This document shows, piece by piece, positions 45,549-56,668 of a stretch of DNA of 64,000 bases (the stretch's first letter is position 1; the number at the start of each line of letters is the position of its first letter). Source of the stretch: Flavobacteriales bacterium (GTDB lineage: Bacteria; Bacteroidota; Bacteroidia; Palsa-965); contig JBEIPA010000002.1 in the NCBI GenBank assembly GCA_040377305.1, forward strand, positions 96,001 to 160,000. The letters are read 5' to 3'. The notes under the pieces are model-generated. The model did no database searches, was not told the origin of the DNA, and was given only the letters and a program-made list of their open reading frames with translations. The translations under genes were made by a program, and so were the position numbers.

Positions 45549-46790
45549 ATGAACGCTCAGCAATTTCTTACATGGATGCGGAATCCGGGAACCACTTCCC
45601 GCGAAGAGAGTGCGCAATTAGATGCGTTGCTTGATTCGTTTCCGTATTTCCAGTCGGGACATTTGCTGTACATCAAGAACCTTCATAATCAGGGAAGCTT
45701 TCTTTACAACAATCAGTTAAAGACAGCGGCTGCTTATGCGGTGAATAGGAAAGTGTTGTACAACTTGATCACTCTCAAGTCGACAGACGACAGACGACAG
45801 ACGGGAGTTGAGATGAAAGCTGTAGAAGTAAAAGTTGAAGAAGTAACCAAGCCGGAAGAACAGATTTCTATTCCTCCGAAGTTTCCTACGAAGCGGTTTA
45901 CGAGTAATCCGGATGAATGGGAAGCGGGAATGCTGAGGCAGTTGCAGTTGTTGCATCATTGGCAAAAGGCGACAGACGAAAGACGGGAGACGGGAGAAAA
46001 CAGTGCGCAGTTGCCAGTGCATAATACGCCGGTACAGAAAGAAGAAGTTAAGTTGGAGGAAACTCAAACTCCTAAACTTCCTGATGCGAAGGAAGAGATC
46101 AATACTTTGCTTTATGTTCTAGTTGAGCCTGGACAATCGGAAGATTTGAGTGAAGAAACAACGGAAGAAATTTCTTCTGAAGTGGTGAGTGAAGAAAGCG
46201 AAAGTACACAGTGGGAAGTTTCTTCCTTGACCGATGAAACGGAAGAAACATTAGCTCCGATTGCTGTGCCGACGGATTTAGTACAACAGGAAATTATGGT
46301 GGAAGCGATTCATTCCTCTTTCGAATTGGAAGTGGATGATAAGATTCCGTCTGTTGAAGAAATGAAGCCATTCCGTTTGGATCCGATTGAGGAAACCACA
46401 ACAACTTCAGAAGAGAAATCGAAGGAAGAAGTTGTAGTTACGGGAATGGAGATGTCGTTCTCACAGTGGGTACAGGAGGTGAACAAAAAAGTTCCTTCTG
46501 TGTTGCCTAAAACTGCGCTTTCGACAGACTCGTTGGTGGAGCAATTTATCAAGGATGAGCCCCGCCTGAACGTCAAAAAATCGGGCTTCTACAACCCGGT
46601 GAACATGGCCAAGAAGTCCGTTCAGGAGTCGGACGAGTTCGTAACTGAAACATTAGCAAGGATTTACGCAAAGCAAGGGAATCATTTCAAGGCGATCCGT
46701 GCTTACCAGAAGTTAAGTTTGAAATTCCCGGAAAAAACCGCTTACTTTGCAGCCCTCATTGAGGAATTGAAAAGAACACCGAATAAATAG
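45549..46790 (+). CDS. Hypothetical protein with conserved ends, acidic disordered middle and C-terminal TPR
   Basis: FPYFQ..AAAY..NRKVLY at the N-terminus; [29 protein letters not shown] at the C-terminus. Confidence 0.8.
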
Positions 46791-51746: not shown

Positions 51747-52193
51747 TTAACCCTTGCTAAGCAAGTCCTTCACTATCGCGGAGATAATCTTGCCATCAGC
51801 TTTTCCAGCAAATTTTTTCGTTGCGGCGCCCATTACTTTTCCCATGTCGGCAGCGGATGTTGCTCCTAATTCGCTGATCAGATTCTGAACTTCAGTTCTG
51901 ATCTCTGCTTCATCCATCTGCTTCGGGAGGTACGCTTCAATTACACCTGCCTGGAACAATTCTACATCGGCCAGATCTTTACGATTCTGTGTTACGTAAA
52001 TTTCAGCCGATTCTTTTCTCTTCTTTACTTCCTTCTGCAACGCTTTCATTGCAGAATCTTCAGTTAATCCTTCCGGTGAAGTTTTTAAAAGCAACACCGC
52101 AGATTTTATCGCGCGAATTGCTTCCAGCCTTGGTTGGTCTTTCGCCAACATTGCTGTCTTCATATCGCTGTTTATTTTTTCTTCGATTCCCAT
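51747..52193 (-). CDS. GatB/YqeY domain protein
   Basis: DMKTAMLAKD..AIRAIKS, KKRKESA, YLPKQM, DMGKVMG, GKADG. Confidence 0.93.
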   Translation of the reverse strand: MGIEEKINSDMKTAMLAKDQPRLEAIRAIKSAVLLLKTSPEGLTEDSAMKALQKEVKKRKESAEIYVTQNRKDLADVELFQAGVIEAYLPKQMDEAEIRTEVQNLISELGATSAADMGKVMGAATKKFAGKADGKIISAIVKDLLSKG

Positions 52194-52199
52194 TACCGA

Positions 52200-55100
52200 C
52201 TAATCAACGTTGTCGTGAAGAAATGAATTGTTCGGACGAATCTCGATTTTCTTCTCCTCGTTCTCAGTCAGAGTGAAACGTGATACCTGCGATTCAGATG
52301 AGTGAGGAACATTCTCGAGGTTAACGTTGCGGCGTTTGTAAGCTGGTTCGTTTTCCATTTCGTTCAACACTTGCGGGCTCTTCAATTTCAGGCTGATGTC
52401 GCGCAGTTTCTGGATGCGCTCATTCGCACGACGCTGGATATCTTCCTGCTCCGCTTTCTTAGCAGCTTCTTGCGGATCCATTTCCGCTTTCACTTCTTCC
52501 TTGAGGATGAGTGTTGGTTCAGCAACTTCTTCAACAAATGATTCTTCGATCGATGAAGTGATCTCGCTCATTGATGGAGTTTCCGTAAACTCTTCTGAAC
52601 TGAGTTCGCTGATTGGCTCGACAATTTCCTGAGACGTACTTACGATTTCAAACTCCACGCTTGTTGTTGAAGTCCACTCCGACTTCGTTTCAGCAACCGG
52701 CTCTATCGATTTAGATACGAGGAACGGCTCCAGCGGATTCACTTCTGTTTCTGCTACAGGAGGTGTGGTTGTTTCTGCTTTCGGTGCTTCAATAACTGTT
52801 CTCTCTTCGAGCTGACGAACAACTTTTTCAGGCTGTGATTTCGGAGCGTACTCGTAGTTCACAGGATTTGTTTGCTGGAATCCGGTTGCGATGATGGTCA
52901 CGCTCACTGAATCGCCAAGTGAAGTATCAACTCCGTATCCTTTGATTATTTCTGCAGTCTGACCAGCAGCTTCCTGGATGAAGTCGGTGATTTCACCAAG
53001 CTCGTCCATTGTGATTTCTTCAGAACCGGAGATGATATTCAGCAACACATAACGCGCGCCGATAATGTTGTTGTCGTTAAGGAGCGGAGAGTTCAGTGAC
53101 ATTTCCACTGCGCGTACTGCACGGTTCTCACCCGAAGCCACTGCCGATCCCATGATTGCCACACCGCTGTTGCGCATTACTGTGCAGATATCGGCGAAGT
53201 CAACGTTGATCTGTTGTGTGATGCTGATAATTTCTGCAATGCTCTTCGCAGCTGTTGTGAGTACATCGTCAGCGTGAGCAAACGCGTCGCTCAACTTCAG
53301 GTTGCCGTACATTTCACGAAGCTTGTCGTTGCGGATAACGAGAAGCGTGTCAACGTTCTGCTTCAGCAATTCGATTCCTTCTTCAGCATACTGGCGGCGT
53401 TTCTTTCCTTCGTGTGCGAATGGAACAGTAACGATACCAACGGTAAGGATTCCCAGTTCGCGTGCAACACCAGCAATTACCGGAGCTGCACCCGTTCCAG
53501 TTCCTCCACCCATACCAGCGGTGATGAACACCATTTTGGTATTGTTGGAAAGAATTGTGCGGAGATCTTCTATGTTTTCGATTGCGGCGTTGCGACCAAC
53601 TTCAGGAATTGATCCTGCACCACGTCCTTCGGTCAAAGTAGTTCCGAGAACCACTTTGTGAGGAACAGGGCTAAGGTCGAGTGCCTGTTTATCAGTATTG
53701 CATACAAGGAAATCAACACCCTTGATGCCGAGTTTGTACATGTGATTTACAGCGTTACTGCCGCCGCCGCCAACACCAATTACCTTGATGATAGACGAGT
53801 ATTCCGGAAGTTCGAATTTCATGGCTTCTTCGGATTTGAGATTAGTATGTGTGTGTGTTTCAATTTCGAATGTTGTTGTTTCAATAGTTTCACCTTCAAA
53901 CAACGGAAGCTCGCCAGGAAGCGAAGCATTGAAGCTTGCCTCTTCAGCGATGTCTTCGAACTCTGCTACTGGTTCAACTGCGTACATCCACGAGTGTTCT
54001 ACATTTACGAACACCGGTGTTGGAGTTTCAGCTACTGGATTTGCTTCTCCTGCTAGCTCGATAGGCTGGAATTCTTCGTTGAATATTGTGTTGTGTGACT
54101 CTGACATATTATGGTTTGCTGCTTCTGTGTTGGTAACGTTGCTTATCTCCCAGCCCATCTCAGTCGTACCGGTAGGCATTATCGTATCTTCTACGGTATC
54201 GGCAACGGGTGACATATTTATTTCAAAGGCCGGTTCAAGTCCGATTGCTTCGAGTGTTTCACTGATTACTTCCGGTGTAAATTCCGCGATCGGCATTTGA
54301 ACCGAATGTTCTTCGACCAGCGAAGCAAAATCAACATCTGCAACCGGATCGGCAGTCCATTCAGCTACCGGATCAGGGGTCCATTCTGCAACAGGATCAG
54401 CTACCACTTCAATTGATCCGGCAATTTCAACTTCTGAACTAATTTCTGAAATCAATTCTATTTCAGATTCAACTTTCCCAAGCGGCTCCATACTTATTTC
54501 CGCAAGCACGTCTTCGGATACTTCTGCAACGATCTCTTCAATCTCAACTGGAGCCAATTCTTCAACAACAGCAACAGTTGTTTCTTCAACAACCGCTTCA
54601 ACTGGCGAAACTGCTTCGATATCTGAAGTCACTACAACTTCCCCAACAACTTCAACTTCGCTTGTAATTTCTGCAACCGGAATAATTTCCAGTTCCTCTA
54701 CTGGTTCTACCTCATGATTAGCCTCGGCAGCAGATATAATATCACTGATCGGTTCTGAAACAATTTCAGATACCGGAACATTATGTGTTTCAACAATTGC
54801 AGCTTTCACTTCTTCATTGTTGTAATCGAATTCTTCATCATTCTCACCACCGATGTTTCCGAATCCCTTCATGATATCAGCAACGGAGCGAAACTTTGGC
54901 AATTCAACTTTTGGTTTCGCCTCAACCGGAACTTCTTCTTTCATTTCAGCATTCGCACCAATCTGATTCTCCAGGATGAACTTTGACGTTGTTTCTGACT
55001 CTTCTTTGGCCATCATCTCTGCCCATTCTTTGTCGAACTCCGCATCCCCAGTAGATTCTGCGACCGGACTAACCGGTGTAATTTTATTCACAGTTTCGTC

Positions 55101-55238
55101 CTGCTTCACAGCATCTTTGAAATTCCAGCGCTTTGGAAAACCATCGTTCGAAATCGGAGACGTGTTGTTCATTGACTGAGTGTTTGCCTTCTCCTCGTTC
55201 GATCCCATCTGATTGTTTGAAATTTCATTGAAATCCAT
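52200..55238 (-). CDS. ftsZ: Cell division protein FtsZ with long acidic N-terminal extension
   Basis: IKVIGVGGGGSNAV begins near residue 484; also NTD, GMGGGTGTG, NVDFAD, and the Bacteroidota C-terminus EPAYKR...NNSFLHDNVD. Confidence 0.95.
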   Translation of the reverse strand: MDFNEISNNQMGSNEEKANTQSMNNTSPISNDGFPKRWNFKDAVKQDETVNKITPVSPVAESTGDAEFDKEWAEMMAKEESETTSKFILENQIGANAEMKEEVPVEAKPKVELPKFRSVADIMKGFGNIGGENDEEFDYNNEEVKAAIVETHNVPVSEIVSEPISDIISAAEANHEVEPVEELEIIPVAEITSEVEVVGEVVVTSDIEAVSPVEAVVEETTVAVVEELAPVEIEEIVAEVSEDVLAEISMEPLGKVESEIELISEISSEVEIAGSIEVVADPVAEWTPDPVAEWTADPVADVDFASLVEEHSVQMPIAEFTPEVISETLEAIGLEPAFEINMSPVADTVEDTIMPTGTTEMGWEISNVTNTEAANHNMSESHNTIFNEEFQPIELAGEANPVAETPTPVFVNVEHSWMYAVEPVAEFEDIAEEASFNASLPGELPLFEGETIETTTFEIETHTHTNLKSEEAMKFELPEYSSIIKVIGVGGGGSNAVNHMYKLGIKGVDFLVCNTDKQALDLSPVPHKVVLGTTLTEGRGAGSIPEVGRNAAIENIEDLRTILSNNTKMVFITAGMGGGTGTGAAPVIAGVARELGILTVGIVTVPFAHEGKKRRQYAEEGIELLKQNVDTLLVIRNDKLREMYGNLKLSDAFAHADDVLTTAAKSIAEIISITQQINVDFADICTVMRNSGVAIMGSAVASGENRAVRAVEMSLNSPLLNDNNIIGARYVLLNIISGSEEITMDELGEITDFIQEAAGQTAEIIKGYGVDTSLGDSVSVTIIATGFQQTNPVNYEYAPKSQPEKVVRQLEERTVIEAPKAETTTPPVAETEVNPLEPFLVSKSIEPVAETKSEWTSTTSVEFEIVSTSQEIVEPISELSSEEFTETPSMSEITSSIEESFVEEVAEPTLILKEEVKAEMDPQEAAKKAEQEDIQRRANERIQKLRDISLKLKSPQVLNEMENEPAYKRRNVNLENVPHSSESQVSRFTLTENEEKKIEIRPNNSFLHDNVD

Positions 55239-55390
55239 AGGATACAGTTTGGATAAAAACTGATGAAAATTACTTTACATCTGCGCAAGCAAAACTTTAT
55301 GTAGGGATAACTTGTTAACGCTTAAATGTTGATAGCTCAACGAATTGCACATCGCAAAATCAAGCGTGGAACATTTCCGTGTAACAAGAA

Positions 55391-56668
55391 CTACCCATTA
55401 GGATCTTCCTCGAACCATTGTTTTCCCTTCGTGAATATCTGATCGAACCATCCGCCGCGCTTTTTAGTGTCGGAATGACCCGTTACGATGTTGGTTTTCT
55501 CTTCATTCGGCTTCTGCTTTGCATAAGCAACCAGCCCACGCATCACTAAACCAACACCGGTTGCATACATCGGACTCGTTACATCCTCCGAACTATTCGC
55601 CAGATGTTCGTTTGGATAACCAACACGCGTATCCATGCCAGTCACGTACTCCATCAATTGGGTAATGTGTTTAAGCTGCGATCCACCACCAGTAACTACG
55701 ATCCCTGCGATCAGCTTTTTCTCATACCCCGAATTCTTGATTTCGTAGTACACATGTTCCACGATTTCTTCCATACGCGCCTGAATAATGTGCGCCAGAT
55801 TTTTCACTGAAATTTCCTTGTGTGGGCGTCCGCGCAACCCAGGAATTGAAACAATCTCGTTCTCCTGATTCTCTGAAGCTAATGCAGAACCGAACTTCAC
55901 TTTTAAAAGCTCTGCCTGCGTTTTGATTATACTGCAACCTTCTTTAATATCTTCCGTGATGATGTTTCCACCGAATGGAATTACTGCAGTATGTCGAATG
56001 ATGCCGTCGTGGAATATTGCTACATCGGTTGTACCACCACCGATGTCAACTAGTACTACACCCGCCTCTTTTTCTTCGTCACTCAAAACTGCATCTGCAG
56101 ACGCCAGTGGTTCCAAAGTCAGGTCCGCCACTTCAAGTCCTGCTTTGTTTACACACTTGTAAATATTACGGGCCGCCGCAACCTGTCCTGTAATGATGTG
56201 GAAGTTCGCTTCGAGGCGCGTTCCTGCCATTCCAATCGGGTTCTTGATTCCGATTTCGCTATCCACAATGTACTCTTGCGGAATCACGTGAATAATTTCT
56301 TCGCCCGGTGACATCACCAAGCGGTACATATCTTCGATGAGCTCGTCAATATCTTTCTGACTGATTTCGTCGTCAAGACTGCGGCGGGTTTTCATACCAC
56401 GATGCTGCAGACTCTTGATGTGTTGTCCGGCAATTCCCACGTTGACAACTTTAATGTCAACACCGGATTTATTGCTGGCTTCTTCCAACGCCATCTTGAT
56501 TGCCTTTACGGTCTCGTCGATGTTCAAAACCACTCCACGGGCAACACCGAGTGATTCAGCTTTACCCATACCGAGGATTTCAATTTTTCCATGCTCAGTA
56601 CGTCGTCCCACCAGTGCGGCGATTTTAGTGGTTCCGATGTCAAGACCGACTACGATTTCAGATTCCAT
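55391..56668 (-). CDS. ftsA: Cell division protein FtsA
   Basis: VGLDIGTTKI, VDIGGGTTD, VVTGGGS, YATGVGL. Confidence 0.97.
   Translation of the reverse strand: MESEIVVGLDIGTTKIAALVGRRTEHGKIEILGMGKAESLGVARGVVLNIDETVKAIKMALEEASNKSGVDIKVVNVGIAGQHIKSLQHRGMKTRRSLDDEISQKDIDELIEDMYRLVMSPGEEIIHVIPQEYIVDSEIGIKNPIGMAGTRLEANFHIITGQVAAARNIYKCVNKAGLEVADLTLEPLASADAVLSDEEKEAGVVLVDIGGGTTDVAIFHDGIIRHTAVIPFGGNIITEDIKEGCSIIKTQAELLKVKFGSALASENQENEIVSIPGLRGRPHKEISVKNLAHIIQARMEEIVEHVYYEIKNSGYEKKLIAGIVVTGGGSQLKHITQLMEYVTGMDTRVGYPNEHLANSSEDVTSPMYATGVGLVMRGLVAYAKQKPNEEKTNIVTGHSDTKKRGGWFDQIFTKGKQWFEEDPNG

Follow-up and report, generated by a model that had tools for sequence, protein, structure and literature searches.

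FtsZ is usually viewed as a single polypeptide, with its variation in length placed in the C-terminal linker and a short N terminus serving as a control point. The ftsZ gene considered here, from a Flavobacteriales bacterium (Bacteroidia; Palsa-965; assembly GCA_040377305.1, 99.99% complete, hereafter G000), lies in a stretch of 64,000 nucleotides (the window; contig JBEIPA010000002.1, positions 96,001 to 160,000 of the forward strand) and carries 472 acidic residues ahead of the usual FtsZ start. Why such a head is kept, and whether the gene supplies one form of FtsZ or two, are the questions that this locus raises. Our comparisons identify the head as a genuine part of the protein, maintained by selection, and suggest that a second, shorter form is probably also made from the old start codon.

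An acidic head fused in frame to FtsZ

In the window ftsZ is a single open frame (55238–52200, minus strand; 1012 codons) between ftsA and a YqeY-family gene, i.e. after ftsA and at the end of the dcw cluster, as is usual for FtsZ; being the only ftsZ match, it is the sole FtsZ gene of G000. Pfam places Tubulin (PF00091) at residues 484–644 (E 5e-44) and FtsZ_C (PF12327) at residues 692–788 (E 2e-20), with no Pfam match for residues 1–483. GGGTGTG (residues 577–583) and the T7-loop N-x-D-F-A-D (678–683), which we take to be FtsZ signatures, are both present; the core is predicted by AlphaFold2 to be folded, and is followed by a disordered linker and the C-terminal peptides EPAYKRR and NNSFLHDNVD, each conserved among relatives. 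By every sequence test but that of a short N terminus, the gene is a member of the FtsZ family. An earlier reading made from the letters alone (the sequence-only reading) had described one frame running from just after ftsA to the FtsZ C-terminus, with the usual start of the protein appearing only at Met473; both observations stand, MKFELPEYSSIIKVIG beginning at Met473 (ATG 53822–53820). The parts of the gene and its neighbours are as follows.

53823–55238, minus strand: 472-aa acidic N-terminal extension (the head), predicted disordered, net charge −91
55116–55142, minus strand: conserved island G-x-P-x-R-W-[DN]-F-K, residues 33–41
54966–55043, minus strand: conserved island, residues 66–91 (EFDKEWAEMMAKEE region), the sole predicted helix of the extension (pLDDT 63–84)
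54336–54398, minus strand: DPVAEWT-PDPVAEWT-ADPVAD repeats, residues 281–301, local copies of a P[VI][AS]E unit
53898–54074, minus strand: three conserved islands near the core, FxPIELA, PVFVNVEHxWMYA and FNxSLPGELPLF
52875–53789, minus strand: FtsZ GTPase core (residues 484–788) with GGGTGTG and the T7-loop NVDFAD (Pfam, AlphaFold2)
52476–52874, minus strand: C-terminal linker, acidic, predicted disordered (composition, AlphaFold2)
52200–52475, minus strand: C-terminal helix, EPAYKRR peptide (52329–52355) and NNSFLHDNVD end (52203–52232), then stop
55391–56668, minus strand: ftsA (425 aa), upstream neighbour in the dcw cluster (Pfam FtsA, SHS2_FTSA)
51747–52193: YqeY-family gene, on the other flank of ftsZ

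The extension contains no stop in its own frame, whereas the other two frames have 26 and 45; none of 200 shuffled versions was open (mean 30 stops). No stop or frameshift separates it from the core: one contig of run X1, a possible source of this DNA, spans the locus with zero differences, and contigs from a separate study (run X2; 53687–53857 and 53839–54091, depth 2.7) bridge the junction between head and core with 0 differences and 35 bases on the extension side, a check that rests on contigs and not on raw reads.

The head had been described as acidic and nearly free of basic residues after about residue 125, which is accurate: residues 126–472 contain 24% D/E and just three basic residues (K145, K255 and K468), and the head holds the most negative 200-aa window among the 2878 G000 proteins of at least 200 aa. 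In the disorder prediction (AlphaFold2, 81-row alignment) pLDDT is below 50 over nearly all of the head, with the exception of the helix at residues 66–91 and the short stretches 36–44 and 115–126. Across the long heads, the islands RW[DN]FK, FDxEWAEM, FxPIxLA, PVFVNVEHxWMYA and SLPGELPLF lie within a variable acidic matrix, several of them near-invariant in the long clade, and the island at residues 66–91 is conserved within the long subclade. The DPVAEWT repeats were found where the sequence-only reading had noticed them; their exact text is species-specific, the P[VI][AS]E unit being the lineage-wide element.

The source of the head was sought in two places. No stand-alone homolog was found among 7997 candidates of 259–826 aa, although the query is of low complexity and the evidence correspondingly weak. 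Duplication of the linker is not established: the best profile similarity, between a long head and a short-clade linker, reached 19.3 bits (4.0 when shuffled), eight other head/linker comparisons gave at most 7.4 bits, and the weak similarity is explained by shared P[VI][AS]E units.

The head is conserved in two sister genera and under selection

The order to which G000 belongs consists of one family with three genera (g1, g18 and g19) and 35 genomes, 32 of which have an ftsZ match, one in each. An in-frame acidic head of 38–472 aa is present in all 27 genomes that could be evaluated, 25 from g1 and two from g19; g1 has 26 genomes with an ftsZ match, of which G022, cut at a contig end, was left out, and the head of G015 is split over two contigs. 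In g18 none of the four ftsZ-bearing genomes has a head: the protein starts MMRFDLP, with an in-frame stop 16–27 codons before the core. The head is likewise missing from 83 other Bacteroidota loci (7 + 76, not counting L078 and L116, which did not parse, or the family-type loci L051 and L052), where the first Met lies 11–23 residues before the core and once 50. Rooted on g18, a tree built from ftsZ and ftsA DNA puts acquisition of the head on the branch leading to g1 and g19. Protein searches added more than 100 further clade proteins, of up to 1040 aa and with heads of up to 495 aa, and a pattern scan of metagenomes returned four loci, all long-headed. G012 is an unpublished genome that contributes one row to the counts and two dN/dS (ratio of nonsynonymous to synonymous substitution rates) pairs; no conclusion rests on it alone. 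We conclude that the head is a real, conserved FtsZ variant of two sister genera of uncultured Bacteroidia.

The same genomes indicate that the head is translated and is under purifying selection on the protein. Across 26 of them the extension has zero in-frame stops, as against 216 and 442 in the other frames, and of 32 aligned indels, 30 have a length divisible by 3. Its dN/dS, estimated by simple counting, is 0.14–0.74 for 10 of the 11 pairs compared, with a median of about 0.24 and one pair saturated, and 0.23 and 0.11 between G000 and its nearest relative G015; for comparison, the core gives about 0.01 and the linker 0.06–0.24. The expectation that the frame would stay open and fused in relatives with dN/dS below 1 is thereby borne out. 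A chance open frame is ruled out by the absence of stops, the lack of any open shuffle, the conservation and the dN/dS values. Two observations pull in the other direction: six of the eight head differences listed for a close strain fall at codon positions 1–2 (hand-counted, contig depth 3.1), and one pair has an extension dN/dS of 0.74; parts of the spacer are therefore probably only loosely constrained.

The start of the long form

Upstream of the first start codon (ATG1) are three elements of conserved spacing, the two boxes of an inverted pair and a −7-like box; they are listed here with the start itself.

55309–55334, minus strand: inverted box pair, AAT[CG]AACA...GTT[AT][AG][CT]AAGTT, in fixed gap-free register in 26/26 extension-bearing genomes
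55265–55272, minus strand: −7-like box TAATTTTC, one base off TAnnTTTG, in 26/26 genomes
55218–55238, minus strand: ATG1 and N-terminal motif, family consensus MDxYxIFD

The −7-like box lies 47 nt past the start of the second box and 25–36 nt ahead of ATG1, and the spacing among the three upstream elements (13 and 47 nt) is exact in 26 of 26 genomes; they are unmatched in 89 outgroup frames. TAnnTTTG, presumably the Bacteroidota −7 promoter box, is 13-fold enriched upstream of G000 genes, with TAnnTTTC only 1.6-fold. We read the whole as a putative factor site with a weak −7 promoter box, the inverted pair being likely a transcription-factor site for a long-form promoter. In the start model described below, ATG1 itself ranks at the 99.9th percentile when set among internal ATGs and at the 68th when set among true starts. 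The long form almost certainly starts at ATG1 and has its own promoter in the ftsA–ftsZ gap, one that a factor probably controls. In G000's own subclade the start motif is eroded to MDFNEIS, which keeps M-[DE]-F and has lost Y4 and F7.

The half-sites of the box pair loosely resemble DnaA boxes, and a genome scan with what we take to be the DnaA consensus found no box cluster. In L042 (G016) the ftsA–ftsZ gap measures 1219 nt and contains tandem repeat-like sequence, with the promoter-like element by ATG1 intact. A search for structured RNA gave a single Rfam match (E 0.0018), far below the gathering score and outside the gene.

Met473 as a probable retained start

53820–53822, minus strand: ATG2 (Met473), likely start of a 540-aa short form, homologous to the g18 start codon
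53823–53859, minus strand: G-poor, A/C-rich, weakly folded stretch (a 37-mer) before Met473, likely a retained translation-initiation region

By alignment, Met473 is the ancestral start position, homologous to the start of g18 FtsZ. All 115 clade proteins with a head have Met here (two non-clade rows and an FtsA–FtsZ fusion left out), as do 27 of 27 genomes, whereas the outgroups in which the residue is not the initiator (n = 63) have I in 31, Y in 17, M in 7, L in 4, F in 3 and A in 1. Bacteroidia are described as initiating not through a Shine–Dalgarno sequence but through upstream adenines (−3, −6, −12 and −13) together with low structure (PMC6847099; PMC13000457). In codons −14 to −4 before ATG2 the lineage uses CAA in 29/29 cases, ACA in 67/87 and AAC in 50/63, the corresponding fractions elsewhere in the extension being 0.45, 0.38 and 0.39; the p-values for this bias are overstated because the genomes are related. 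An A is present at −14 in 27 of 27 genomes, under Gln, Lys and Asn codons alike, and at −13 in 26 of 27, and hardly any G occurs between −26 and −11. Of 19 more distant lineages picked by hand, 18 have more A/C-ending codons than expected (152 of 208 over the 19, against an expected 109), the peak being limited to about 20 codons before ATG2 and absent elsewhere in the extension and linker; predicted unpairing before ATG2 lies above the mean of synonymous shuffles in all 19, in one marginally.

A logistic start model trained on 791 presumed G000 starts (cross-validated area under the curve 0.95) gives ATG2 a score that reaches the 95th percentile of internal ATGs or higher in 20 of 27 genomes, a level attained by 10 of 479 other in-frame ATGs. 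In G000 itself ATG2 outscores all 24 other internal ATGs, and a single G in the interval −40 to −11, as here, precedes 0.18% of internal ATGs and 4% of true starts. The likeness to the leaders of groES, groEL and trxB that had been pointed out is correct in composition and not in arrangement, since CACACA abuts the ATG of those genes and lies about 25–37 nt upstream here. A separate internal promoter for the short form was considered and rejected, TAnnTTTG occurring inside the extension in just one of 26 genomes; with no canonical promoter inside the head in the other 25, the short form would come from internal initiation.

Several results weigh against a working start at Met473. Synonymous A/C before ATG2 numbers 7 in this genome with 6.5 expected, unpairing there gives p about 0.3, and, scored on upstream sequence only, ATG2 ranks at the 75th percentile among internal ATGs and at the 10th among true starts. 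Across the lineage that upstream-only score reaches the 95th percentile in just 10 of 27 genomes, so that the conserved coding start accounts for some of the full score, and G stands at −3 and −6, where A is favoured, in 74% of genomes. The 115-protein set counts about 38 rows of near-identical strains, and the profile used for the search favoured this Met; with a core dN/dS of about 0.01, an invariant Met473 is unsurprising in itself. G000 infB (IF2), tried as an internal-start control, had no comparable signature, so the method has no positive control here. The plausible internal start of the sequence-only reading therefore stands as a start-site-like signature maintained across the lineage, and is weak in G000. 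On balance we favour, by a modest degree, the view that the same mRNA is also translated from Met473, probably the weaker of the two starts, and the existence of two FtsZ isoforms is accordingly judged probable rather than improbable.

Weighing other explanations

The strongest competitor holds that the long FtsZ alone is made, the head acting as a constitutive spacer or binding platform, and that Met473 and the A/C stretch are kept for other reasons, such as a flexible Thr/His/Asn-rich junction, slippage in an AC repeat, or a pause or RNA-processing site. We consider it less probable than a second start, though a serious possibility. The weak signal in G000, the G at −3 and −6, the position of Met473 beside an almost invariant core and the differing length of the ACAC run between genomes all speak for it; yet the bias is synonymous, includes CAA and AAC as well, is locked in register to ATG2 and is absent elsewhere in the extension and linker. 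Moreover, synonymous sites of the extension are near saturation between modest relatives, so that a mere relic should have decayed, and outgroups replace this Met where it is not the initiator. The long form might instead be a precursor or store, its head blocking assembly until a protease cuts near the junction, with no need for a second start. A junction predicted to be disordered and exposed, and an upstream element that suggests regulated synthesis of the long form, would suit such a scheme, which we nonetheless think distinctly improbable, as the junction is constrained in its nucleotides more than in its amino acids: A, T, D, S, N and I all occur before Met, whilst the poverty in G is kept.

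Two further explanations concern the head itself. It could be translated and yet consist mostly of neutral repeat growth, with selection acting on the frame, on acidity (for solubility) and on a few motifs, and with the short form carrying out division. Lengths of 38–495 aa, the pair with a dN/dS of 0.74, the eroded start motif in G000's subclade and the gain and loss of P[VI][AS]E repeats speak for this, but a dedicated and rigidly conserved upstream element, near-invariant islands in the long clade, an overall dN/dS of about 0.24 and the occurrence of longer heads where the linker is shorter make it unlikely. Finally, the head might be an artefact, either an assembly join or an untranslated open frame ahead of a normal ftsZ, as the disagreement of annotators could suggest, P0295 (541 aa) and P0125 (716 aa) beginning at the internal Met and their cluster mates being long. 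Retention of the fusion in 27 genomes, four metagenome loci and over 100 database proteins, dN/dS below 1 and the second-study contig across the junction refute this reading, to which we assign next to no weight.

Relationship between head and linker, and a proposed mechanism

Clade heads of at least 167 aa pair with linkers of 101–187 aa, and those of at most 95 aa with linkers of 227–387 aa (a non-clade row, P0137, has a head of 31 and a linker of 158). The P[VI][AS]E unit follows the same division, with 3.6 copies per protein in the head and 1.7 in the linker in the long clade, and 0.5 and 9.0, respectively, in the short clade. It is possible, if somewhat doubtful, that the head is a second spacer, partly interchangeable with the C-terminal linker.

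Work on other FtsZs suggests what such a spacer might do. Phe2 of FtsZ is the hook for ZapA in Klebsiella (PMC12216130), the N-terminal tail of the E. coli protein (residues 1–10) is a disassembly element acting in cis (PMC12137876), and Anabaena FtsZ without its N-peptide forms thick bundles (PMC6175996). From these three cases we infer that the head acts as a spacer limiting packing and masking Phe475, the probable positional equivalent of the conserved N-terminal Phe. ZapA was found in 32 of the 35 family genomes. In the mechanism that we propose, one gene would supply a long FtsZ of 1012 aa and a short one of 540 aa, and the two would co-assemble. The head would be a polyanionic spacer that limits lateral packing and bundling of filaments. 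In the long form the Phe475 hook would be buried behind 472 acidic residues, and the head would contribute its own short motifs, the motif islands possibly binding partner proteins. The short form would begin with an exposed M-K-F, the counterpart of the Phe2 hook by which Klebsiella FtsZ captures ZapA, and so restore a free hook within a mixed filament; how far apart filaments lie in the Z ring, and how strongly ZapA cross-links them, could then depend on the ratio of long to short form. Tuning of filament bundling by the head is plausible. Condensate formation, also raised by the sequence-only reading, fits less well, as an almost purely polyanionic chain (three basic residues in 347) would more likely repel than self-condense. 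The observation behind that reading is thus confirmed, and its interpretation as a whole partly supported.

This scheme has evidence to answer. On the tree, head and linker length change together only twice, giving two independent pairs (sign test p 0.5), and their summed length is not constant (231–517 aa). Linker length alone was without effect on ring geometry or size in vitro, where charge pattern did alter ring size (bioRxiv 2025.11.25.690400), so that any effect of the head may depend more on charge than on length. Neither of two AlphaFold2 models shows a motif of the extension docked on the core, pLDDT in the extension being below 50 in both apart from the helix and short stretches given above for G000. 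A count of [FW][DEN]-hydrophobic motifs over 71 proteins gave no enrichment in the extension (67, with 58 expected from shuffles). The extension as an array of extra Phe hooks is rejected for want of this enrichment, a single such motif being positionally conserved in long heads. A predicted complex of a ZapA tetramer with residues 1–130 of a relative's extension scored 0.08 against a mark of 0.32 with no controls folded alongside, and counts neither for nor against the scheme. Taken together (a selected, fused head, an ancestral start that still initiates, co-assembly, and a spacer that masks Phe), the account seems to us evenly poised between right and wrong. Its furthest extension, a two-component Z ring from one gene, with a factor-controlled promoter for the long form, an internal start for a short form with a free ZapA hook, and a ratio of the two that sets spacing and cross-linking, and with acidic mass moved from the linker to the N terminus more than once, is offered tentatively and is, in our view, rather more doubtful.

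Relation to known systems

Canonical Bacteroidota FtsZ (start M-x-F-[DE]-[LI]-P, a long and acidic linker, end NNSFLHDNVD) shares with this protein the GTPase core, the position after ftsA, the C-terminal peptides and the single copy, and differs in having 11–23 residues before the core (maximum 50 in 83 loci) as against 483. The long form lacks the short N-terminal peptide of the family, which the short form would have. Linkers in Bacteroidota are long, with a peak at about 295 aa (survey in bioRxiv 2025.11.25.690400), and FtsZ N-terminal peptides of a few to about 200 aa have been described (PMC6175996); the present clade, with 38–495 acidic residues ahead of the N-terminal control point, exceeds that range. 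The closest precedent is the N-peptide of Anabaena PCC 7120 FtsZ (Corrales-Guerrero 2018; PMC6175996), likewise a lineage-specific N-terminal addition that is often mis-annotated, and one that alters filament bundling and SepF binding. The cyanobacterial peptide measures 20 to over 80 aa, has homologs in Cyanobacteria only and, in the accessible part of the text, comes with no mention of a second start; the head here reaches 495 aa, is polyanionic, probably arose independently in one Bacteroidia family and keeps the old start. With the Klebsiella and E. coli termini our protein shares the inferred equivalence of Phe475 and the presence of ZapA in the family, but the Klebsiella hook is terminal whereas the putative hook here would be internal in the long form.

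Production of two proteins from one gene by two starts has been experimentally shown in bacteria for E. coli PBP1b (alpha and gamma), IF2 (alpha and beta) and CheA (long and short). As in those cases, a conserved in-frame internal start codon would remove a partly disordered N-terminal segment; by contrast, the second start proposed here comes from sequence comparison, and the protein is a polymerising cytoskeletal subunit. In the literature searched, of which coverage was partial and supplementary alignments were excluded, neither a long acidic head on a Bacteroidota FtsZ nor a one-gene, two-form FtsZ is described; the supplementary alignment of 4603 FtsZs of bioRxiv 2025.11.25.690400 may include such proteins.

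If both forms are made, the clade would build a mixed Z ring from a single gene, with an effect comparable to that of the FtsZ pairs that plastids and archaea encode in two genes, and a two-component ring, if true, would be a natural test of whether FtsZ disordered tails are interchangeable between the two ends. The natural series of heads (0, 38, about 80, 170, 210, 320 and 470 aa) with reciprocal linkers makes the roles of the tails testable in vitro.

Additional observations

Public records are inconsistent in the annotation of the ftsZ start: P0126, like P0295 and P0125, is annotated from the internal Met with the head omitted. Near-identical strains of the G017 type (P0074–P0112) have linkers that vary in 13-residue steps (250, 276, 289, 302, 315 and 328), which suggests an actively expanding repeat. 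In L012 (G005) the GGGGSNAVNHMY motif at the start of the core reads DLGGRRIIKNKN in frame, probably through paired compensating sequence errors, and L092 (Prolixibacter) has two ftsZ frames within one locus. Three proteins from other lineages are unusual in different ways: P0018 (916 aa) is a predicted FtsA–FtsZ fusion on one ENA contig that may be a frameshift or assembly error, and P0019 and P0020 are FtsZs of 883–897 aa that start normally and have a very long C-terminal region, acidic in composition. Elsewhere in the window, a 413-aa open reading frame (45549–46790) before a secG-like gene has an acidic centre that ranks as the seventh most negative 200-aa window in the genome.

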